Virus record (IMG/VR): IMGVR_UViG_3300027734_000097
Span: 1-53,244 of that record
Length of the DNA: 53,244 nt
Source: a virus
Lineage: Duplodnaviria > Caudoviricetes
Reading direction: 5' to 3' (one strand)
A program made the translations under genes and the position numbers. Below are positions 1,868-52,192 of this stretch, piece after piece. Position 1 is the first letter of the stretch. The number at the start of each line of letters is the position of its first letter. The notes under the pieces are model-generated. The model was given only the letters and a program-made list of their open reading frames with translations, was not told the DNA's origin and ran no database searches.

Positions 1868-4360
1868 ATGGCAGATATAGATAAAAGTTTAAGTCAAGCT
1901 CCTTTAGGTTTAGAAGAGTTAGCACAAACACAACCCGATTTAAGTATTGAAATAGAAAATCCAGAAAGTGTTACGTTAGATGACGGTAGCATGGAAATTA
2001 CAATTGTTCCTGGTAAAGAACATAACGATGAATTTAATGCTAACTTAGCAGAAGAGTTAGATGAAGGACAACTTACAGAATTATCTGGTGATCTTATTGG
2101 TGAATATGATACGGATATAAGTTCTAGAAAAGATTGGTTAACAACTTATGTAGATGGCTTAGAGTTACTAGGTCTTAAGATTGAAGACCGCACAGAACCG
2201 TGGCCCGGTGCTTGCAATGTATACCACCCCTTAATGACAGAAGCGCTGGTTAAGTTCCAAGCTGAAACTATGATGGAAACATTCCCCGCAGCTGGCCCAG
2301 TTAAAACACAAATCATAGGTAAGCAAACTCCTGAGAAAGAAGAATCTGCACATCGTGTCCAAGAAGACATGAATTACCAATTGACTGATATGATGCCTGA
2401 GTATAGACCTGAACATGAACGCATGTTATGGGGACTAGGTTTAGCAGGTAATGCATTTAAGAAAGTTTATTTTGATCCATCATTACAACGTCAAGTAGCG
2501 ATGTATGTGACTGCAGAAGATATTGTAGTTCCATATGGTGCATCTAATTTAGAAACAACAGAACGTGTTACACACGTGATGAGAAAAACAAAGAATGAAC
2601 TTCGTAAATTACAAGTTGCAGGATTTTATCGTGATGTAGATTTAGGCGAACCATTCTTAGATATTGACGAAGCTGAGAAAAAGATTGCAGAAAAGTTAGG
2701 ATTTAATCCGTCAGAAGATGATAGATATAAAATTCTTGAAATGCATGTTAACTTAGATTTAGAAAATGGTGATAGTGAAGATGGTATTGCAGTACCTTAT
2801 GTTGTAACAATTGAAAAAGGTACAAGTACTATTTTAGCTATACGTCGTAATTGGGATCCAGAAGATAAGTTAAAAGCTAAGCGTCAACACTTTGTGCATT
2901 ACGGTTACATACCAGGATTTGGTTTTTATTGTTTTGGTTTAATTCATTTGATAGGTGCCTTTGCAAAATCCGGTACTATGATCTTACGTCAACTTGTTGA
3001 TGCGGGTACTTTATCAAATTTACCAGGTGGTATGAAGTCACGTGGTCTTAGAATTAAAGGTGATGATACTCCGATTGCTCCAGGTGAATGGCGTGACGTA
3101 GATGTACCAAGTGGTGCTATCCGTGACAACATTTTACCTCTTCCATATAAAGAACCTTCACAAGTATTAAATTCATTGATGAATCAAATCATCGAAGAAG
3201 GTCGTGCATTTGCTAATGCTGAAGGATTAAAAGTTTCTGACATGTCAGCTAACGCACCTGTTGGAACAACATTAGCAATTCTTGAAAGAACATTGAAAGT
3301 AACGTCAGCTATTCAAGCTCGTATTTACTATGCGATGAAACAAGAGTTTAAACTTCTTAAAGGCATCATTCGTGATTACACACCACCAGAATATAATTAT
3401 GATCCAGATGTAGGTGATCGTCGTGCTAAACAATCTGATTATGATGATGTAGATGTAATTCCAGTAAGTGATCCAAATGCAGCAACCATGTCACAAAAGG
3501 TTGTGCAATATCAAGCTGTTATGCAAATGGCACAAGCTAATCCACAAATCTATGATCTAGCAGAACTTAATAAACAAATGTTAGAAGTATTAGGCGTTAA
3601 GAATATTGGTAAACTTATTCCAGCTGCAGAAGATAGAAAACCTAAAGATCCTGTAACTGAAAATATGGCAATCATTAATGGTTCCCCTGTTAAAGCATTT
3701 ATCTATCAAGATCATGAAGCTCATATTAAAGTTCATATGGCAGCAATGCAAGATCCTAAGATAGCAGCACTTATCGGTCAAAATCCTCAAGCACAAACTA
3801 TTCAAGCAGCAGCTATGGCACATATTAATGAACATATTGCATTTGAATATAGAAGACAAATTGAACAAGAGTTAGGTGTTCCATTACCAGCTCCAGATCA
3901 AGTATTACCAGAAGATGTAGAAGTTCAAATATCTCGTTTGTCTGCTGATGCTGCTCAAAAACTATTAGGTAAAGATCAAGCTGAAGTTGCACAACAACAA
4001 ATTGCTCAACAACAACAAGACCCATTAATCCAAATGCAACAACAAGAACTTCAAATTAAACAACAAGAAGTTCAAATTAAAGCACAAAAAGCAATGGCTG
4101 ATATCCAACTTGAACAAGAAAAATTAATGCTTGAAAAAGCTAAGTTTGATTCTCAAGAAAAATTAGAAGGCGCTAAAATTGGTATAAAAGTTGGTGCAGA
4201 TAAACAAAAAACAGAGATGGATGCTCAAAAATTTCAAGCAGAACAACAAGCACGTGGAGTTGAATTAGGTTTAGATGTTGCTAGAACTAATCTTGATCAT
4301 GCACGCCGAAAAGAATTAACGCAAATGAATAAGGAACAAATACAACAACCCAAGGAGTAA
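1868..4360 (+). CDS. Portal protein
   Basis: 830 aa directly after terL; GNAFKKVYFD and GFYCFGLIH segments typical of P22-like portals; long Gln-rich coiled-coil C-terminal barrel. Confidence 0.88.
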   Translation: MADIDKSLSQAPLGLEELAQTQPDLSIEIENPESVTLDDGSMEITIVPGKEHNDEFNANLAEELDEGQLTELSGDLIGEYDTDISSRKDWLTTYVDGLELLGLKIEDRTEPWPGACNVYHPLMTEALVKFQAETMMETFPAAGPVKTQIIGKQTPEKEESAHRVQEDMNYQLTDMMPEYRPEHERMLWGLGLAGNAFKKVYFDPSLQRQVAMYVTAEDIVVPYGASNLETTERVTHVMRKTKNELRKLQVAGFYRDVDLGEPFLDIDEAEKKIAEKLGFNPSEDDRYKILEMHVNLDLENGDSEDGIAVPYVVTIEKGTSTILAIRRNWDPEDKLKAKRQHFVHYGYIPGFGFYCFGLIHLIGAFAKSGTMILRQLVDAGTLSNLPGGMKSRGLRIKGDDTPIAPGEWRDVDVPSGAIRDNILPLPYKEPSQVLNSLMNQIIEEGRAFANAEGLKVSDMSANAPVGTTLAILERTLKVTSAIQARIYYAMKQEFKLLKGIIRDYTPPEYNYDPDVGDRRAKQSDYDDVDVIPVSDPNAATMSQKVVQYQAVMQMAQANPQIYDLAELNKQMLEVLGVKNIGKLIPAAEDRKPKDPVTENMAIINGSPVKAFIYQDHEAHIKVHMAAMQDPKIAALIGQNPQAQTIQAAAMAHINEHIAFEYRRQIEQELGVPLPAPDQVLPEDVEVQISRLSADAAQKLLGKDQAEVAQQQIAQQQQDPLIQMQQQELQIKQQEVQIKAQKAMADIQLEQEKLMLEKAKFDSQEKLEGAKIGIKVGADKQKTEMDAQKFQAEQQARGVELGLDVARTNLDHARRKELTQMNKEQIQQPKE

Positions 4361-4363
4361 CAC

Positions 4364-4558
4364 ATGGACTCAACGCTAGAACTATTATTGTCTCGAATAG
4401 ATGATCAGCGCAAAACAGTATTAATGAATTTGGCAGACGGAGCAGCAAAAGATTTTGCTTCATACCAAAATATGACCGGATATATTCGAGGTTTATCCGT
4501 AGCAGAAGGAATTATTAAAGACCTCGCACAAAGAATGGAGACGTTTGAAGATGAGTGA
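4364..4558 (+). CDS. Small hypothetical protein of the head module
   Basis: AAGGAG RBS, 64 aa, YQNMTGYIRGL motif; lies between portal and GroES-like gene. Confidence 0.75.
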   Translation: MDSTLELLLSRIDDQRKTVLMNLADGAAKDFASYQNMTGYIRGLSVAEGIIKDLAQRMETFEDE

Positions 4559-4997
4559 ACAAATTCTTACGATGAATAAGAACTTGGTTGATGCTAATGG
4601 CCGACCGATTATTATTCCAACAGTAAATGAAGTAGATGCAGAAGATATACCAATTGAAGAAAGAGGTTTACAACTTCCAGACCCAAAAGGCTATAGAATT
4701 TTATGTGCAATTCCAGAAGCAGAGGAAACATATAAAGGTGGCATTGTTAAAGCAGCTGGTGCTAAATCTATAGAGGAACATTCGACTGTAGTTTTATTTG
4801 TAGTAAAAGTAGGTGACTTAGCTTATAAAGATGAAGTCAGATTTCCTACAGGTCCATGGTGTAAAGAGGGTGATTTTGTTCTAACACGTGCATATGCAGG
4901 TACTAGATTCAAGATCCACGGAAGAGAATTCCGCATTATTAACGACGATACGGTTGAGGGGGTTGTAGAAGATCCTCGCGGCTACACTCGCGCATAA
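4551..4997 (+). CDS. groES: GroES/Cpn10-like co-chaperonin
   Basis: PKGYRILC..., mobile-loop-like TYKGGIV, VVKVGDLAY, EGDFVL, and C-terminal GREFRIINDDTVEGVV match the Cpn10 pattern. Confidence 0.85.
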   Translation: MSEQILTMNKNLVDANGRPIIIPTVNEVDAEDIPIEERGLQLPDPKGYRILCAIPEAEETYKGGIVKAAGAKSIEEHSTVVLFVVKVGDLAYKDEVRFPTGPWCKEGDFVLTRAYAGTRFKIHGREFRIINDDTVEGVVEDPRGYTRA

Positions 4998-6501: not shown

Positions 6502-7125
6502 ATGGCATATCCAACCATTAACAGTCCTTATGGTTTTGAACCAGTTAATCGTTATGATGGTATTCCTTACGCCGGGGCAACTTTACAGATCCCAATTGCG
6601 TCAAGTTACAATACTCCAATCTATAACGGTTCTTCAGTAAAAATCGTAGCGGGCGGCACATTAGAATTATCAGGCACTACAACTTCCGGTACTATTATCG
6701 GTGTGTTCATGGGTGTTCAATACGTTAATTCATCAGGCCAAACAGTTCAAGCTCAATACTACCCAGGTACTAGCGTTACTAACGCTGTTGCTTACGTAGT
6801 TGTTGATGCATCAGCTGAATTCAAAGTAGCATTAACAGTTTCAGGCGCTCCTACAGTAGTAGTTGGTGCTAATGCAACTATTGTTGGTACAAACTTAGCT
6901 GAAATTCAAAACGGTACTGGCTCAACATCAACAGGTAATTCACAAGCTTCATGCGTGATTCCTGCTAACGGTGCTGGATCAACAACAACATTACCATGGA
7001 GAGTAGTTGCAGTAGTTCCTGACACAGCTTATACATCAGGCTCTACAGTACTTTATCCAGAAGTACTTGTAAAAATTAACAACCCACAGTTGACTGCCCT
7101 TACCGGCGTTAATTACGTAGCTTAA
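6502..7125 (+). CDS. Probable capsid decoration/cement protein
   Basis: Strong AAGGAG RBS; beta-rich, G/T/S/V-rich 207 aa immediately upstream of the major capsid gene. Confidence 0.6.
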   Translation: MAYPTINSPYGFEPVNRYDGIPYAGATLQIPIASSYNTPIYNGSSVKIVAGGTLELSGTTTSGTIIGVFMGVQYVNSSGQTVQAQYYPGTSVTNAVAYVVVDASAEFKVALTVSGAPTVVVGANATIVGTNLAEIQNGTGSTSTGNSQASCVIPANGAGSTTTLPWRVVAVVPDTAYTSGSTVLYPEVLVKINNPQLTALTGVNYVA

Positions 7126-7141
7126 CTAAGGAGAACATAAC

Positions 7142-8056
7142 ATGGCTATTTCACGTGCACAGCTCCTAAAAGAGCTATTACCAGGACTTAACGCGCTATT
7201 CGGTTTAGAGTACAAGCGTTACGGAGAAGAACATAAAGAAGTTTATGAAACAGAGACTTCAGAGCGTTCATTCGAAGAAGAAACAAAACTTTCAGGTTTC
7301 TCAGCAGCACCAGTCAAAAACGAAGGCACAGCAATCGCTTATGACAATGCTCAAGAAGCTTGGACAGCTCGATACAATCATCAAACTATCGCTCTTGGCT
7401 TTTCTTTAACAGAAGAAGCTGTAGAAGATAACTTGTATGACACATTATCAGCACGTTACACAAAGGCTTTAGCTCGCGCTATGGCTTACACAAAACAAGT
7501 TAAGGCTGCTGCAGTTCTTAATAATGGCTTCAACACTTCTGGTTCTTACAACGGTGGTGATGGTGTTTCATTATTTAACGTATCTCATCCTCTTGTTTCA
7601 GGCGGTACAAACAGCAACACTCAATCAACTCCTACAGACTTGAACGAAACAGCACTAGAAAACGCTGTTATTCAAATCGCTGCATGGACTGATGAGCGTG
7701 GCCTATTGATCGCTGCTCAACCACGTAAGTTAATTGTTCCACCAGGTAATCAATTCGTTGCAACTCGCTTGCTCGAAACTGAACTTCGTGTTTCAACAGC
7801 TGACAATGATATCAATGCTATTAAGAATAATGGTTCAATCCCAGAAGGTTACGCAATTAACCACTTCTTAACAGACAGCGATTCATACTTCTTAACAACT
7901 GATGTACCTAACGGCATGAAACACTTTGTGCGTACTCCGTTATCTACTTCTATGGATGGTGACTTTGATACTGGTAACGTTCGTTACAAGGCTCGTGAGC
8001 GTTATTCATTTGGTTGGTCAGATCCTCTCGGTATGTGGGGTTCACCAGGTGCTTAA
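7142..8056 (+). CDS. Major capsid protein (HK97 fold, Mu gpT-like family)
   Basis: MAISRAQLLKELLPGLNALFG N-terminus, PRKLIVPP and RYKARERYSFGWSDP motifs; strong RBS, biased codon use, followed by a terminator. Confidence 0.9.
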   Translation: MAISRAQLLKELLPGLNALFGLEYKRYGEEHKEVYETETSERSFEEETKLSGFSAAPVKNEGTAIAYDNAQEAWTARYNHQTIALGFSLTEEAVEDNLYDTLSARYTKALARAMAYTKQVKAAAVLNNGFNTSGSYNGGDGVSLFNVSHPLVSGGTNSNTQSTPTDLNETALENAVIQIAAWTDERGLLIAAQPRKLIVPPGNQFVATRLLETELRVSTADNDINAIKNNGSIPEGYAINHFLTDSDSYFLTTDVPNGMKHFVRTPLSTSMDGDFDTGNVRYKARERYSFGWSDPLGMWGSPGA

Positions 8057-8079: not shown

Positions 8080-8111
8080 AAGGGACCTGCTTAAAACACA
8101 GGTCCTTTTTT
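8080..8111 (+). terminator. Rho-independent terminator after the capsid gene
   Basis: AGGGACCTG-cttaaaaca-CAGGTCCTT stem-loop running into a T tract. Confidence 0.85.
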
Positions 8112-8204
8112 CATGGTTTTCTCTAGGACTTTGTATCGCAAAAAGAGCAATATATGCGTAGCTACAACGTAGCTTAGTAAAAATACAATACAAAGGAGAA
8201 CAAT

Positions 8205-8276
8205 ATGTGGACTAAACCAGCAGCAACAGAAATGAGATTTGGCTTTGAAGTAACTATGTACGTAATGAACAAGTAA
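8205..8276 (+). CDS. pqqA: Pyrroloquinoline quinone precursor peptide PqqA (23 aa, [23 protein letters not shown])
   Basis: Translated by hand (absent from the ORF track). AAAGGAG RBS at 8192-8198; MW-x-KP start and the E-x-x-x-Y core (EVTMY) that supplies Glu and Tyr for PQQ. Confidence 0.96.
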
Positions 8277-8291
8277 TAAAAACGTATGACT

Positions 8292-8321
8292 AAGACCCCT
8301 AGAAATAGGGGTTTTCTTTTT
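8292..8321 (+). terminator. Rho-independent terminator after pqqA
   Basis: AAGACCCCTA-GAAA-TAGGGGTTTT stem with a GNRA loop, followed by CTTTTT. Confidence 0.88.
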
Positions 8322-8327
8322 ATATTA

Positions 8328-8366
8328 TGCTATAATGCTTGCAAATAGTGCCATTTCAGGTATTAT
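8328..8366 (+). promoter_or_regulatory. Sigma70-type promoter(s) restarting transcription after the pqqA terminator
   Basis: Perfect extended -10 TGCTATAAT (8328-8336); also TTGCAA (8339-8344)-16 nt-TATTAT (8361-8366). Confidence 0.65.
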
Positions 8367-8373
8367 TTGGGAA

Positions 8374-8447
8374 TCCGGGTTACCCGGTTCATTAGACTGT
8401 CCCGGCAGACGCATACAAGACTAATGAGCCTAACTTTGTATGAAGGA
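8374..8447 (+). ncRNA. Putative structured leader RNA (double-pseudoknot pairing potential)
   Basis: GGTTCATTAG (8386-8395)/CTAATGAGCC (8421-8430); CTG/CAG stem with loop TCCCGG complementary to CCGGG (8375-8379); CATACAAG (8412-8419)/TTTGTATG (8435-8442) abutting SD GAAGGA. Confidence 0.65.
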
Positions 8448-8454
8448 AAATATC

Positions 8455-9036
8455 ATGGCACAAACAACATTTAGCGGCCCAGTCGCGTCTCAAAACGGTT
8501 TTATTGGCGGTACAGCAACAGATCCAATCGTAGTAACAACATCAGGCAATATCAGCCAATCATATGCAACTACATCTGCAACATCAGGTGATACACGCTT
8601 ATCTTATAACAAACTAACATTTACAGCAGCAGGTTCTGGCGAAACATTAAGAGCTTTCTCAGTAGTTAATACAGGTACAGCAGCAGTAGGCGGTACAATT
8701 AACGGTGCTCACATCTCTATGGAAGTAGATTCTGCAGGCGCAATTTCAGGTGCAGGTAATGCACTACGCGCTACTTTAGGTGGTACAGCAACTGCTCAAA
8801 CAGGTACATTAGCAGTTATTCAAGCTGATACTAATTTTGGTGCAGGCGTTACAGTTCCAGCTTCAGCATCATTTATTAGAGTAACAGATTCTGGTGCTAC
8901 TACAGGTGCTATTACTAACCTCTTTAACTTACCATCAGCATTAGTTCCAGCTAAGTCAGCAGCAGCAGTGACTCACACAATTAAAATATTAGTTGGTAGC
9001 ACTCCTTACTACTTAATGGTTTCTAACGCACAATAA
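8455..9036 (+). CDS. Probable virion structural protein (head fibre/decoration-like)
   Basis: MAQTTFSGPV N-terminus, A/T/G/S-rich beta-type sequence; start moved from 8440 to 8455 to fit the AAGGA RBS. Confidence 0.7.
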   Translation: MAQTTFSGPVASQNGFIGGTATDPIVVTTSGNISQSYATTSATSGDTRLSYNKLTFTAAGSGETLRAFSVVNTGTAAVGGTINGAHISMEVDSAGAISGAGNALRATLGGTATAQTGTLAVIQADTNFGAGVTVPASASFIRVTDSGATTGAITNLFNLPSALVPAKSAAAVTHTIKILVGSTPYYLMVSNAQ

Positions 9037-9191
9037 TGGAAATCACAAAAGACTTTCTTTTGTCTGAGATTAAGCGTCTTGAGGCAGAGCGTAACCAAGC
9101 ATCTAGTTTTGTTACAGCTTCTCAGGGCGCCATCGATGCATATACTGCGTTGGTGGAAAGATTAGACGTTAAAGAAGAAAAAGGAGAATAA
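9036..9191 (+). CDS. Small coiled-coil hypothetical protein (51 aa, MEITKDFLLSEIKRLEAERNQ...KEEKGE)
   Basis: Not in the track; TAATG-coupled to the upstream gene, fills the gap to 9193 exactly; could be a chaperone for the upstream fibre-like protein. Confidence 0.75.
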   Translation: MEITKDFLLSEIKRLEAERNQASSFVTASQGAIDAYTALVERLDVKEEKGE

Positions 9192-9192
9192 T

Positions 9193-9705
9193 ATGTCGAT
9201 GCAATATGATGTAAAACAAGCACACTTAAATTCTAGTGGCTATTTCGTAAACTACCCTGTACGTGTTAAAGGTGTATCATTTGCAGGTGCAGCTACTGCT
9301 GGATATATAACTTTATTTGATACGTCTTCAACACCTGTTTCATCAAGTGTAACATATGCACAAACAGCTAATACTGTAACAGTAACTAAAACTGCACACG
9401 GTTTATCTACAGGCGATGTTATTGGTATTCACTTCCTATCAAATTCTGGTGTTTCAGCTACTGATGGTACATATTCTATTACTAAAACAGGCGCAGATAC
9501 ATTTACCCTTACAGATATTAACTCGCGTAGTATTACTAGCACTGCAGCCGTATATGCTGTCGGTAAATGGTTACTTACTTATGAAACTGTAGCTACTGAT
9601 ATATTTACTAATGTTCCGTTCATTCCAGGTGAAGGCATAAGAGCTGAAACAGGTGTATATGCTTACATGGTTAATATGGATGCGGCACAAATAATTTATG
9701 GCTAA
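9193..9705 (+). CDS. Probable structural protein with an inserted beta domain (VTVTKTAHGLSTGD type)
   Basis: AAGGAG RBS; Thr-rich insert resembling the beta-barrel segments common in phage tail proteins. Confidence 0.65.
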   Translation: MSMQYDVKQAHLNSSGYFVNYPVRVKGVSFAGAATAGYITLFDTSSTPVSSSVTYAQTANTVTVTKTAHGLSTGDVIGIHFLSNSGVSATDGTYSITKTGADTFTLTDINSRSITSTAAVYAVGKWLLTYETVATDIFTNVPFIPGEGIRAETGVYAYMVNMDAAQIIYG

Positions 9706-10184: not shown

Positions 10185-10412
10185 ATGAAAGCTTTTATAG
10201 ACAGAATATTTAAAAAAAGGAAACACGATGCTGAACAAATTGAAGAAAATAAAGCAATACTTATCAAACAAATTGAAACATCTATCAAAGAAGTTGTAGA
10301 AGAAGTAAAAGAAGAATTAAAAGAAGCAGAAGTTTTTACAAAACCCGGTCATTACTTTAATGATTGTAACTGTGTAAAATGTGTAAGATGGAGAAACCAA
10401 GATGCCAAGTAA
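10185..10412 (+). CDS. Hypothetical protein with C-terminal H/C cluster
   Basis: AGGAG RBS; acidic coiled coil followed by HYFNDCNCVKC, a possible metal site. Confidence 0.65.
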   Translation: MKAFIDRIFKKRKHDAEQIEENKAILIKQIETSIKEVVEEVKEELKEAEVFTKPGHYFNDCNCVKCVRWRNQDAK

Positions 10413-10800
10413 ATCTAAAGCACAACGTAATCTAATGGCAGCCGCAGCTCACAATCCTGCGTTTGCTAAAAAGGTAGGGGTTCCTGTGGCAGTTGCGCAG
10501 GAGTTTAATAAAGCCGATAAAGGCAAAAAATTTGGGAGTGGTGGTATGGCTAAATCAGATATGAAAGAAGATACAAAGATGGACAAAACACAAGACAAGG
10601 CTATGATTAAAAAAGCTTTTGCTCAACATGATGCACAAGAACACAAAGGTGGCAAAGGTACTAAGTTAGCTCTTAAAAAAGGTGGTATGGCTAAGAAAAT
10701 GAGTAAAGGATGCGGTTATGTTTCTGGCGGTAAAGTATCTCAACTAGCTAAAGCTAATGGTATTGCTATTAAAGGTAAATCAAAAGGAAGGAACGTTTAA
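10402..10800 (+). CDS. Small basic protein (putative internal head protein)
   Basis: MPSKSKAQRNLMAAAAHNPAFAKKVG start; several KKGG/SGG motifs; ends ANGIAIKGKSKG. Confidence 0.75.
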   Translation: MPSKSKAQRNLMAAAAHNPAFAKKVGVPVAVAQEFNKADKGKKFGSGGMAKSDMKEDTKMDKTQDKAMIKKAFAQHDAQEHKGGKGTKLALKKGGMAKKMSKGCGYVSGGKVSQLAKANGIAIKGKSKGRNV

Positions 10801-11212
10801 TCATGGCTAAAGATAAATTTGACAAGGCTTTTGAAGATATGAAATCAGGTAAAATTCAAGGACCTACAAATGATGATATGAGTCCTCGACAAAAAGAGAC
10901 TCTTACAACTAAAGACGATATAGCTAGAAATGAAATGGCTGCAGAAAAAAAAGATAAATATCTAAAAAGTTATGGCACTGGTTTAAAAGATAGTTTGTCT
11001 GACTATAAACGTAGGGGTGATCTTGGTATTGCTATGGGCAGGACTGTAAGCCCAGAAGGACAAGGTTATGAAGAGATGCGCGATGCTATTAGATCAGAAA
11101 GAAAAAAATCTGGCATGCCAGCTGTAGAAGATAATATGAAAAAAGGTGGTACTATCAAAGCTAAAAAAATGGCTTCAGGTGGTAAAGTATCTCAATTAGC
11201 TAAAGCTAATGG
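10729..11212 (+). repeat. Dispersed 32-bp direct repeat (10729-10760 and 11181-11212)
   Basis: GGTAAAGTATCTCAA(C/T)TAGCTAAAGCTAATGG, 31/32 identical, encoding GKVSQLAKANG in two adjacent genes. Confidence 0.9.
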
Positions 11213-11252
11213 CTGCGCTGTTCGTGGTAAAACTAGAGGAAAGATCTGCTAA
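10803..11252 (+). CDS. Small charged protein, C-terminus paralogous to the upstream gene
   Basis: Ends MASGGKVSQLAKANGCAVRGKTRGKIC, near-identical to the end of 10402..10800. Confidence 0.75.
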   Translation: MAKDKFDKAFEDMKSGKIQGPTNDDMSPRQKETLTTKDDIARNEMAAEKKDKYLKSYGTGLKDSLSDYKRRGDLGIAMGRTVSPEGQGYEEMRDAIRSERKKSGMPAVEDNMKKGGTIKAKKMASGGKVSQLAKANGCAVRGKTRGKIC

Positions 11253-14562: not shown

Positions 14563-15990
14563 ATGACAACAGTATCTTCTGTTTTTTCAGAAGCACCGCA
14601 AGTTAAAGTAAGTAATGTAAGACCGTTAGAAAAAGATTTATATAAAATGATGTGGAACATACCAGAGTATAGACATGTAGCTCCTGGTGAACTCATCGCA
14701 CAAGAATTTTTGAATCAAGCTAAACCTCCTAAGGGGGCATCAGTCATAGACTTAGGATGTGGTACAGGGCGTGGCGCTCTTAACCTAGCTTTTTTTGGTG
14801 GCTTAGACGTCACTATGGTTGACTTCGCAGATAATTGTTTAGACGAAGATATTCGACCGATGTTAGAAACACAGAAGCATGCTATGCGATTTGTAGAGGC
14901 AGACTTATCTGAACCCCTACCTGTTAAAGCAGCTTATGGATTTTGTACGGACGTGATGGAGCATATTAGACCTCATCATGTAGATAAAGTATTAGATAAT
15001 TGTTTGGCTGCTTGTCAGCATGTTTTCTTTCAGATTGCTACTGAAGATGACTTAATGGGTAAAGTGGTAGGACACAAGCTTCATTTAAGTGTACATCCAT
15101 ATGAGTGGTGGCTAAAAAAGTTTATTGAACGAGATTGTGTTATTCATTGGTCTAAAGAGGCTAACGGATATTGCTTATTTTATGTAAGTGCTTGGATAAA
15201 AGGTGAAGATGTTGTCGAAAAAGGTGTTATTAATACTGACGACGAAACTATCAAAGCAAACGTAGAATACAACATTCAAAGAGGGTTTATGCAAGTTCAA
15301 CCTTATCCTACGAATGACCAAGAAGTTATGATTGTGGGTGGTGGACCATCATTGAGTGAGCACCTTGAAACTATTAGACAAAAGAGGGCTGATGGTGTTA
15401 AACTAATCACAATTAATGGGGCTTATAAATGGTGCCTTGACAATGGTATTACGCCTTCTGCTATGGTTATGGTAGATGCTAGACCTTTTAATGCACGATT
15501 TACTCAACCTATAGTGGATCATTGTAAGTATTTTATTGCTTCTCAGTGTGACCCTACTATATTTGATGGGCTTCCAAAAGACAGAACTTATATATGGCAT
15601 ACAAGCGCGGAATTGCTAAATGACATATTAGCTAAACATTATAAAACATGGTATCCAGTTCCAGGGGGATCTACAGTTCTTTTAAGATCAATACCGTTAT
15701 TTAGAATGTTAGGATTTAAACAGTTTCATCTCTTCGGATGCGATTCTTGTTTAGATGAAAAAGAAGTTCACCATGCATATGAGCAACAAGAAAATGATGG
15801 ACAGCCGATCATACCTGTAAACGTGGGCGGGAAAATATTCAGCTGCAATCCGTGGATGATCTCTCAGGCACAAGAATTTATTGATTTGATTCGTATGCTA
15901 GGAGATGAAATTGAATTAAACATTTATGGCGGGTTACTCCATCATATTTTAGAAACAGGCGCTTCATACGCCGACATAAAGGAGATTTAA
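14563..15990 (+). CDS. Class I SAM-dependent methyltransferase fused to a DUF115/Maf (MptE-like, glycosyltransferase-like) domain
   Basis: N-domain VIDLGCGTGRG, VDFA, CTDVMEHI; C-domain MIVGGGPSL, ITINGA, VMVDA, GGSTV...LGFKQFHLFGCDS. Confidence 0.8.
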   Translation: MTTVSSVFSEAPQVKVSNVRPLEKDLYKMMWNIPEYRHVAPGELIAQEFLNQAKPPKGASVIDLGCGTGRGALNLAFFGGLDVTMVDFADNCLDEDIRPMLETQKHAMRFVEADLSEPLPVKAAYGFCTDVMEHIRPHHVDKVLDNCLAACQHVFFQIATEDDLMGKVVGHKLHLSVHPYEWWLKKFIERDCVIHWSKEANGYCLFYVSAWIKGEDVVEKGVINTDDETIKANVEYNIQRGFMQVQPYPTNDQEVMIVGGGPSLSEHLETIRQKRADGVKLITINGAYKWCLDNGITPSAMVMVDARPFNARFTQPIVDHCKYFIASQCDPTIFDGLPKDRTYIWHTSAELLNDILAKHYKTWYPVPGGSTVLLRSIPLFRMLGFKQFHLFGCDSCLDEKEVHHAYEQQENDGQPIIPVNVGGKIFSCNPWMISQAQEFIDLIRMLGDEIELNIYGGLLHHILETGASYADIKEI

Positions 15991-51577: not shown

Positions 51578-52192
51578 CTATTTAAATGGTTTGCCTGTAA
51601 TCCAACCTACTAATGAATAGCGTCTACCTTCTGTAATAGGTGTAACTTCATGTAATGTTGGTGAAGGAAACGCAACAACTGTGCCTCGTTCTTTCTTCAT
51701 GACATCGGGATTATCATTCAAATGAATTTGTAATTCACCACCTTCATAGTCTTTAGGGTCTGATAATTGTAATACAAATGATAACTTTCTTACCGTTCCA
51801 TTAAACATACTATCAACGTGCTTACCATAATGACCACTTGGTGCATTATATTCTGTGAATTGAAAGCCTTCTGTAAAACCAAACAAATCAAATCTAAAAT
51901 AGTCTTCATTCAATCTTGTAATAATATCTGTGAGTCTTTGATATACCCAATTAATTTCGGGGTCTGGGGTAATCCATACCACTTTACTTTCACGAATTTC
52001 AGCATTGAGTTCACCTTTGTTAGATACACCCGCATTTATTTTCTCAAAATGTTCTGCGTAGTCAATAATCTTTTGGCACTCTTCGGGAGTAAACGCTTCA
52101 TCCCAATATGCCCATGCGTTTAACTTCTCTACTTCAAAAGCCCAACTTGCGTTAGGTTGTGGTGATGGTTTTAAACTTTTAACTTCTTTCAT
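51578..52192 (-). CDS. 2OG-Fe(II) oxygenase (prolyl-4-hydroxylase/PKHD-type)
   Basis: FTPEEC, QFTEY, HYGKHVD (HxD), RKLSFVLQL, YEGGEL, FPS..LHEVTP...GRRYSLVGW. Confidence 0.92.
   Translation of the reverse strand: MKEVKSLKPSPQPNASWAFEVEKLNAWAYWDEAFTPEECQKIIDYAEHFEKINAGVSNKGELNAEIRESKVVWITPDPEINWVYQRLTDIITRLNEDYFRFDLFGFTEGFQFTEYNAPSGHYGKHVDSMFNGTVRKLSFVLQLSDPKDYEGGELQIHLNDNPDVMKKERGTVVAFPSPTLHEVTPITEGRRYSLVGWITGKPFK

Follow-up and report, generated by a model that had tools for sequence, protein, structure and literature searches.

A stand-alone gene for the PQQ precursor peptide PqqA as a probable auxiliary metabolic gene in phages of Methylophilaceae

The stretch of phage DNA considered here (the window: all 53,244 nucleotides of the IMG/VR virus record IMGVR_UViG_3300027734_000097, Caudoviricetes) harbors among its structural genes, at 8205–8276 on the plus strand, a minute gene, pqqA, which comprises 23 codons and a TAA stop in an intact frame and encodes the precursor peptide of pyrroloquinoline quinone (PQQ). 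This pqqA is probably a functional phage-encoded auxiliary metabolic gene (AMG), a self-contained insert in the genome of a lytic-looking podovirus of freshwater Methylophilaceae that would keep the PQQ precursor supplied in the infected cell.

The peptide reached 42.4 bits against PF08042 (cut-off 21.1; all 19 profile positions covered) and 40.4 bits against the TIGR02107 equivalog (cut-off 20; 21/21 positions), i.e., about twice the curated cut-offs in both models and far beyond chance, which at the level of sequence identifies it as a true PqqA. It displays the Glu-X-X-X-Tyr pair (E15-V-T-M-Y19) within 23 residues, the typical length of PqqA being ~20–40. According to references cited in the relevant passages of PMC7678222, PqqA is bound by PqqD, its Glu and Tyr (the cross-linked pair; references 50–51 therein) are joined by PqqE, a radical S-adenosylmethionine (SAM) enzyme, and the product is trimmed and oxidized by PqqB and PqqC to yield PQQ, one peptide being spent per cofactor. 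A preliminary description of the window had proposed a stand-alone pqqA furnished with an AAAGGAG ribosome-binding site and flanked by a hairpin terminator on either side. Every element of this arrangement is present; the check with profile hidden Markov models (HMMs) placed the peptide above the cut-offs of both families, and the gene is located in a whole virus record with phage genes on both sides.

Recurrence of pqqA in phages and selection on the peptide

A scan of IMG/VR with a degenerate DNA pattern for the FGFEVTMY core returned at least 119 contigs (the pattern fixes these residues, and more divergent viral PqqA are uncounted), with a complete PqqA frame of 23–25 codons in all of the loci fetched. 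Genes pqqB–E were found beside pqqA in none of these loci within the fetched flanks; the same queries, used as a control, detected pqqB–E beside pqqA in many genome loci, including those of Methylophilaceae, at 50–60% identity. Grouped by the similarity of their flanks, 126 phage loci formed 28 clusters (at least 30% of the shorter flank aligned) or 46 clusters (at least 50%), both being upper figures because short loci cannot link. A loose single-linkage clustering, which merged 121 of the 126 loci, was discarded. Overall, the flank contexts of phage pqqA are diverse.

A tblastn search of 50,697 deposited phage records with the peptide matched 12 records, ten of them real phage records: one uncultured Caudoviricetes genome with a 100% identical peptide and nine cultured phages of Methylophilales/Methylophilaceae, namely Venkman, P19250A, MEP301, MEP401, MEP402 and four Melnitz isolates, with peptides 77–96% identical and genomes of 35–142 kb. 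NCBI places MEP402 in Zobellviridae and Melnitz (142 kb) in Kyanoviridae; the other records opened are unclassified Caudoviricetes. Two matches named ‘Acinetobacter phage MD-2021a’ were dropped: the one opened (L008; CAKLQF020000010.1, 103210–113263), although filed as phage, is an ordinary bacterial chromosome with fur, ppk and pqqBCDE and is not countable as a phage gene, and the other, an unopened 13-kb contig under the same assembly name, was dropped by analogy. Other phages of Methylophil* hosts listed at NCBI, whose membership in the searched collection is uncertain, gave no match (MEP431–434, HIM624-A, phiMB624-A, Venkman EXVC038S, MG-MTP1 and RSA-MFP1), and the claim made here stops short of all cultured Methylophilaceae phages carrying pqqA. 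A blastn search with the flanks of MEP402 recovered, among Methylophilales phages, only MEP401, MEP402 and MEP301.

The six cassettes extracted from GenBank each possess an intact frame and a ribosome site, and their flanks are mutually unrelated. The gene resides in the early or recombination region of Venkman, MEP301 and MW202481, after the early-gene run of P19250A, beside tRNA-Leu in Melnitz and, in MEP402, upstream of gp69 at the opposite end of the linearized record from the tail fiber gene; it is antisense to its neighbors in Venkman and MW202481. None of the six records opened annotates pqqA: those of Venkman, P19250A, MEP301 and MEP402 show no feature at its position, and those of MW202481 (L002:2067–2195) and Melnitz-1 (L007:3961–4056) carry a ‘hypothetical protein’ on the opposite strand across it. 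The expectation that gene callers miss such tiny genes was borne out, with no annotated feature under the match in five of the ten real phage records and a call on the wrong strand in these two.

Comparison of 113 unique phage coding sequences gave a synonymous diversity (pS) of 0.577 and a nonsynonymous diversity (pN) of 0.093, i.e., a pN/pS of 0.161; omission of the eight codons that the search pattern fixes raises the ratio to 0.283. Residues W2, P5 and R11, all outside the pattern, are invariant in this set, R11 being encoded by CGT (62), AGA (36), CGC (11), CGA (3) and CGG (1). The low pN/pS together with the varied R11 codons therefore indicates that selection acts at the level of the peptide rather than of the nucleotide sequence. 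In its genomic features, the gene matches what is looked for in an AMG: it is closely homologous to a metabolic gene of the host, purifying selection maintains it in phages, and it is encoded in a genuine phage genome, flanked on either side by phage genes.

In 16 IMG/VR contigs, pqqA is situated directly 3' of a capsid gene 75–98% identical to that of the window; an assembly chimera is unlikely, since these independent contigs share the same arrangement. Most of the syntenic loci also keep the same order of elements: capsid stop, hairpin, TCATG(A/G)nTnT box, TATAAT-like hexamer, ribosome site, pqqA and second terminator. The capsid gene and the gene after it are separated by 154 nt in HTVC023P, 104 nt in Pag-Yong1 and 131 nt in DSL-LC04, relatives on other hosts whose records gave no tblastn match to the peptide, and by ~385–400 nt in the window. 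The median spacer, measured by the calling of open reading frames (ORFs), is 140 nt in 63 pqqA-negative relatives vs. ~395 nt in ten pqqA-positive ones; the positive loci L032 and L020 gave short spacers, probably because an ORF in between, or a false one, was called.

A relative of the window capsid protein was found in at least 599 IMG/VR stretches. A capsid tree made by a quick method without bootstraps comprised 91 rows, of which 12 were pqqA-positive, 70 negative and nine unlabeled (less than 400 nt downstream); L022 and L027 (capsids 39–44% identical), four duplicate loci and partial capsids were left out. On this tree, the pqqA label needs six changes vs. a mean of 11.3 after shuffling, and none of 500 shuffles was as low. 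Seven positives, including the window, fall in one clade and four elsewhere, and the strongly supported branches force one change; the tree is compatible with a single gain followed by losses and with several gains. Taken together, the tree and the spacer lengths mark the cassette as an accessory element, patchily distributed within this capsid lineage.

Anatomy of the cassette and a host-like upstream box

As read from its sequence elements, the unit is ordered as capsid terminator, putative box, weak −10, leader hairpin, Shine–Dalgarno, pqqA and its own terminator, ~250 nt in total. It opens after the capsid gene with an intrinsic-terminator-like hairpin and T-run at 8080–8111 on the plus strand, as are all elements of the cassette (stem 8080–8089/8099–8108; −13.7 kcal/mol, z = −5.1; none of 200 shuffles folded as well), which the consensus terminator scan missed because its loop is 9 nt long. 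Most of the syntenic relatives with sequence at this place show a hairpin and a T-run with different stem letters (judged by eye from the alignment, uncounted). The box TTCATGGTTTTC at 8110–8121, a conserved block of columns in the alignment of the window with the 16 syntenic loci, is a candidate regulator site or promoter-upstream site and resembles the pqqA box of host Methylophilaceae. It is followed by a weak −10-like hexamer, TATATG (8151–8156), aligned with TATAAT, CATAAT or TACAAT of the syntenic relatives, and by a small hairpin in the pqqA leader, AGCTAC-AAC-GTAGCT (8160–8174; minimum free energy of the leader −7.9 kcal/mol, z = −1.85). Leaders with z below −2 were found in 29/122 phage loci, 17/53 Methylophilaceae-type host loci, 7/67 loci of other hosts and 6/126 random windows, a modest enrichment that makes this element suggestive only.

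The Shine–Dalgarno sequence AAAGGAG (8192–8198) is placed 6 bases 5' of the ATG, and AAGGA- or AGGAG-type sites occupy the same position in the six GenBank cassettes and the syntenic loci. After pqqA, the terminator scan called a hairpin and T-run at 8292–8325; the hairpin proper (8292–8315) has ten pairs, four of them G–C, and is followed by CTTTTTATAT (−14.1 kcal/mol, z = −3.1; 0/200 shuffles as good). A hairpin with a T-run follows pqqA in 57 of 123 phage copies vs. 30 of 629 random windows.

The downstream edge of the cassette is marked by an element already outside it, at 8328–8454 (plus strand), consisting of an extended −10 promoter TG-n-TATAAT (8328–8336) and the leader of the next structural gene (8455–9036), the conserved start of which is the ATG at 8455 and not that at 8440. 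The promoter and this leader of ~110 nt, including GACTGTCCCGGCAGACGCATACAAGAC, are kept in about half of the syntenic relatives and missing in others (by eye), and the leader could be structured; a search of Rfam gave no family match for any part of the window.

The 130 nt upstream of pqqA in Methylophilaceae-type genomes contain a recurrent box, e.g., TCATGAAAATCATGA, TAATGATTTTCATTAG or TCATGATTTTACTGAG. In the hosts, it is built of two palindromic half-sites, TCATGA-N3-TCATGA or TAATGA-N3-TCATTA, ~100–120 nt before the start codon (e.g., L188:20–60, L150, L171 and L172). A 6-mer test free of prior assumptions, with random windows from these loci as background, singled out TCATGA in the host set (29/53 vs. 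19/424); in the phage set, TATAAT was the most enriched (55/122 vs. 63/974), and ATGATT was found in 44/122 vs. 61/974. The half-site T[CA]ATG[AG] is present in 76/122 phage loci vs. 153/976 control windows and in 42/53 Methylophilaceae-type host loci vs. 70/424, the corresponding figures for other hosts being 8/67 vs. 56/536. Upstream of pqqA in Methylococcales, Methylophaga and other hosts, the box is not enriched. The box common to hosts and phages is a candidate site for the binding of a regulator not yet described.

The full layout of box, ribosome site, gene and terminator is also contained within ~250 nt at an orphan pqqA of Methylopumilus (L188; box TCTCATGATTTTCATGAGA), so the phage copies appear, by their layout, to be self-contained units resembling host orphan pqqA genes. 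It had been suggested that pqqA gains expression by lying beside the most highly transcribed gene of the phage. This part of the preliminary description found no support: a terminator separates the two genes, pqqA has promoter-like elements, including a box of its own, and in other phages the gene lies elsewhere, at varied and sometimes antisense sites.

The phage and its host

The window represents one whole IMG/VR virus record, linear and ~84% complete by the CheckV estimate, with a GC content of ~39%. Upstream of pqqA it encodes the large terminase TerL (288–1856), the portal (1868–4360), a GroES-like co-chaperonin (4545–4997; PF00166, 26.7 bits), which is also encoded by HTVC023P, Pag-Yong1 and DSL-LC04, and the major capsid protein (7142–8056, plus strand; phrog_371 major head protein, 8.4e-20; PF25209 Phage_capsid_4, 47.7 bits vs. 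a cut-off of 27). Downstream lie genes for SU10-type adaptor proteins, virion proteins and a DNA ejection protein, and the opposite strand encodes a primase/helicase, a helicase, a PD-(D/E)XK nuclease and a DNA polymerase. The capsid protein shows 73% identity to the one from Planktothrix phage Pag-Yong1, 65% to its counterpart in Pelagibacter phage HTVC023P and 55–56% to those of Roseobacter phages CRP-901/902; therefore, the window derives from an HTVC023P-type podovirus. No tRNA was found in it, and the tyrosine integrase profile PF00589 gave no match (control: 14/14 genomes; serine recombinases were not searched).

The gene has no pqqBCDE neighbors. Profiles for PqqD, Radical_SAM and PQQ_2 (PQQ-repeat dehydrogenase) had no matches in the record, and tblastn with PqqB–E gave a best E of 0.14, in line with the earlier statement that no other pqq gene is present, although this absence covers only the sequence at hand because the record is ~84% complete. 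The lack of such neighbors does not disqualify the gene: many Methylophilaceae-type genome loci with room downstream of pqqA have no pqqB–E either.

Several further genes of the window deserve mention. Two adjacent Lys/Gly-rich ORFs (10402–10800 and 10803–11252) have a common C-terminal SGGKVSQLAKANG...KGK motif; they look like paralogues and perhaps encode internal virion or DNA-binding proteins. Within the structural genes lies an ORF (14563–15990) that combines a SAM-methyltransferase with an MptE-like (6-hydroxymethylpterin diphosphokinase-like) domain (PF01973, 80.3 bits), and a 2-oxoglutarate (2OG)-Fe(II) oxygenase (PF13640, 66.1 bits) is encoded at 51578–52192 on the minus strand.

The search pattern used for IMG/VR found at least 120 loci in the genome collection, and those listed belong mostly to methylotrophs (Methylophilaceae, Methylococcales, Methylophaga and others). 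The exact peptide of the window recurs in at least 13 genome loci; those with a title, 11 in all, are Methylophilus, Methylotenera, Methylobacillus or metagenome-assembled genomes of Methylophilaceae, and a one-residue variant (MWTTPAAT...) is found in ‘Ca. Methylopumilus universalis’ and many Methylotenera. Likewise, 99 of the at least 119 IMG/VR peptides show a Methylophilaceae-type C-terminal motif ending in [VI][MC]N[KR], as scored with our own regular expression built from the genome peptides. Complete or in part, the locus was present in 20 of the 24 sequencing runs listed, from 12 studies, mostly labeled as freshwater or lake water, with one from an estuary.

This distribution of the peptide makes the family Methylophilaceae well supported as the host, but not a genus. 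Of the Methylopumilus/OM43-like host proposed initially, the family and the Methylophilaceae character of the peptide thus stand; marine OM43 is unlikely for the window phage because the runs are mostly labeled as freshwater or lake water, and M. universalis has the variant peptide. A freshwater host fits both the runs and the low GC content. Methylophilaceae possess 3–12 copies of pqqA and one set of pqqBCDE, as stated in the portion of PMC4109929 covered here, and three genomes inspected by us gave 3, 6 and 5 pqqA matches. In a PQQ-producing strain with five pqqA copies, two are expressed far above the others (PMC9851590), and a paper on the mining of peptides made on ribosomes and modified after translation (RiPPs) reported host PqqA co-expressed with defense systems (PMC11118758).

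Proposed precursor supply during infection and alternative explanations

The contrast of multi-copy pqqA with single pqqBCDE suggests that precursor supply is what Methylophilaceae scale up. In an infected cell whose transcription is shut down or destroyed by a lytic phage, the host enzymes PqqB–E, being catalytic, would persist; PqqA, in contrast, is consumed, each cofactor costing one peptide. A phage carrying only the consumable PqqA, at a cost of ~250 nt, could keep PQQ synthesis going, so that the activity of PQQ-dependent methanol dehydrogenase and the energy supply would be sustained until lysis. The scheme presumes transcription from the gene's own promoter, processing of the peptide by host PqqD and PqqE, and a benefit to the phage. 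A boost to host methanol oxidation, as envisaged in the preliminary description, is a reasonable inference.

On a broader scale, pqqA may be a hallmark of Methylophilaceae phages, siphovirus-, podovirus- and myovirus-type lineages having independently acquired the complete host-style unit and kept it under selection; we would give this generalization an even chance of being right.

Several points weigh against the precursor-supply reading. The host already has several pqqA copies, so a need for one more is an assumption, and that PQQ supply limits phage infection is likewise only assumed. The conservation of Glu and Tyr in the IMG/VR copies is partly circular because the pattern required FGFEVTMY, and only the ten tblastn matches are free of this. 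The window has a weak −10 hexamer (TATATG) and lacks a clear −35, and the consensus promoter scan gave no call. Among the 80 closest of the at least 599 capsid relatives (83–89% identity), only four carry pqqA according to the PqqA profile HMM; the control gave 1e-17 for the window, the four positives are, by name, contigs already among the IMG/VR set, and in 67 of the 76 negative relatives the sequence continues for at least 400 nt past the capsid gene. Since the tree needs six changes, a link between pqqA and host is not proven within the capsid lineage.

The RNA data add another point of this kind. Freshwater metatranscriptome contigs (X16, X17 and X18) cover the pqqA ORF at 90% identity or more and have other leaders and tails beyond its edges; the high depth over 8212–8318 in X16 and X18 stems from contigs with loose ends at 8204/8205 and 8277. 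Because these contigs leave the window at the ORF edges, the strong RNA signal over the ORF is to be assigned to other pqqA loci, of hosts or phages. The metatranscriptome contigs include structural genes of the phage, and those of run X6 are identical to it over 6778–7168 and 8396–9202; therefore, this phage or a near-identical one was present in that RNA library. All four RNA runs consist of assembled contigs, which cannot show transcription, and the uncovered bins beside the ORF are evidence neither way.

Among the alternatives, an interference with the host seems unlikely, though it is the one to be taken most seriously: over-produced PqqA would tie up PqqD and PqqE, or the box would titrate a host regulator of methylotrophy, reprogramming the metabolism. 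Such a role would agree with the box being common to host pqqA, as many copies of the phage genome could compete for its binder, and with PQQ enzyme genes accompanying the peptide in 0 of the at least 119 viral loci. Yet selection acts on the amino-acid sequence and not only on the upstream DNA, and the window peptide is identical to a host peptide and should hence be an ordinary substrate, which disfavors interference; moreover, hosts tolerate 3–12 copies of the gene according to the same part of PMC4109929. It is still harder to believe, and in our view very improbable, that pqqA is a neutral passenger, i.e., a piece of host DNA captured recently or a product of chimeric assembly, without any role in the phage. 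The many stand-alone pqqA cassettes of similar size in Methylophilaceae would be easy to pick up, and the patchy distribution in the capsid lineage would suit a passenger. It would not, however, be expected to remain intact in all of the at least 119 IMG/VR copies and in all seven phage copies inspected, nor to show a pN/pS of 0.16–0.28 at a pS of 0.58, with synonymous sites widely diverged and the peptide conserved. The 16 independent contigs with the gene at the same site after the capsid gene and its retention in several unrelated phage types speak against it as well, and flanks similar to viral loci were seen in only eight of the at least 120 genome pqqA loci, over no more than 8% of the locus.

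Many temperate phages integrate into tRNA genes and rebuild them. By analogy, phage pqqA could serve as the phage attachment site (attP), integrating into host pqqA and rebuilding it, a scenario to which we assign hardly any probability. Short, highly conserved and multi-copy, pqqA has the properties of a good target, and in Venkman-, MEP301- and MW202481-type phages it is found near Cro/CI-like regulators in the early/recombination region. Against this stand the lack of PF00589 matches in the window, within the limits of that search given above, and the presence of pqqA in Melnitz (Kyanoviridae, 142 kb). The whole gene with its own ribosome site is kept and its synonymous sites diverge, whereas an attachment core needs nucleotide identity; in addition, none of the at least 120 genome pqqA loci has substantial phage-like flanks. 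The supply of a consumable precursor thus remains the explanation that we prefer.

A guess that viral pqqA might have been noted before proved right: a viral PqqA was reported in the Lake Baikal viral population VP_266 and read as an AMG (Coutinho et al. 2020, Microbiome 8:163, PMC7678222). As far as the parts of that paper covered here go, the two cases are alike in that the PqqA gene sits on a phage contig, a freshwater methylotroph is the predicted host and support of methanol oxidation is proposed. Unlike the window phage, where PQQ_2 had no match, the VP_266 contig also encodes a methanol dehydrogenase (the sequences of the two were not compared), and the layout, the recurrence in cultured phages and selection are not addressed in those parts. 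Within the literature covered, with supplementary gene tables and the papers describing Venkman and P19250A outside its scope, viral pqqA is, among the papers listed, reported only there, and no paper was found that links pqqA with a Methylophilales phage. A term search of the main texts on Melnitz (PMC9004378), MEP401/402 (PMC10580990), MEP301 (PMC8024684) and MG-MTP1/RSA-MFP1 found no mention of pqq as a phage gene.

Close counterparts of the window gene are the orphan pqqA genes of Methylophilaceae (PMC4109929, in the part covered; L188), with an identical or nearly identical peptide, a stand-alone layout and no pqqB–E nearby; in contrast to them, the window copy lies between phage structural genes, its flanks are unrelated, and its box and −10 are weaker matches. 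With Venkman, Melnitz, MEP301, MEP401/402 and P19250A it shares an intact pqqA with a ribosome site and a peptide 77–96% identical, but these cultured phages are of other types and carry the gene at other genome positions. Cyanophages encode PsbA (the D1 protein), a fast-consumed part of the host energy system, so that the supply of energy outlasts the infection, and psbA has experimental support. The likeness of pqqA to it would be one of concept and not of family, psbA coding for a full membrane protein and the role of pqqA being drawn by analogy. Overall, viral pqqA itself is already known; what appears to be new is its recurrence, unannotated, across unrelated phages of one host family, cultured ones included, and, seemingly, the self-contained architecture like that of host orphan genes, the selection on it and its occurrence as a discrete presence/absence insert in one capsid lineage.

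If this reading is true, pqqA, at 72 nt, would be among the smallest AMGs and would play a psbA-like role for methylotrophy, a trait systematically overlooked in annotations, those of cultured isolates included, as gene callers with length cut-offs hide real auxiliary genes. It would also offer a cheap and specific sequence marker for predicting methylotroph hosts of uncultured phages, and cultured phage–host pairs for a direct test exist (Venkman, Melnitz, MEP301, MEP401/402 and P19250A). Methylophilaceae (OM43, LD28/‘Ca. Methylopumilus’ and Methylotenera) play a major part in the consumption of methanol and further one-carbon compounds in lakes and the ocean, and PQQ is required by their methanol dehydrogenases. 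Should their phages routinely carry pqqA, infected cells of this family would keep oxidizing methanol under phage control, which would bear on the flow of carbon through these abundant bacteria.

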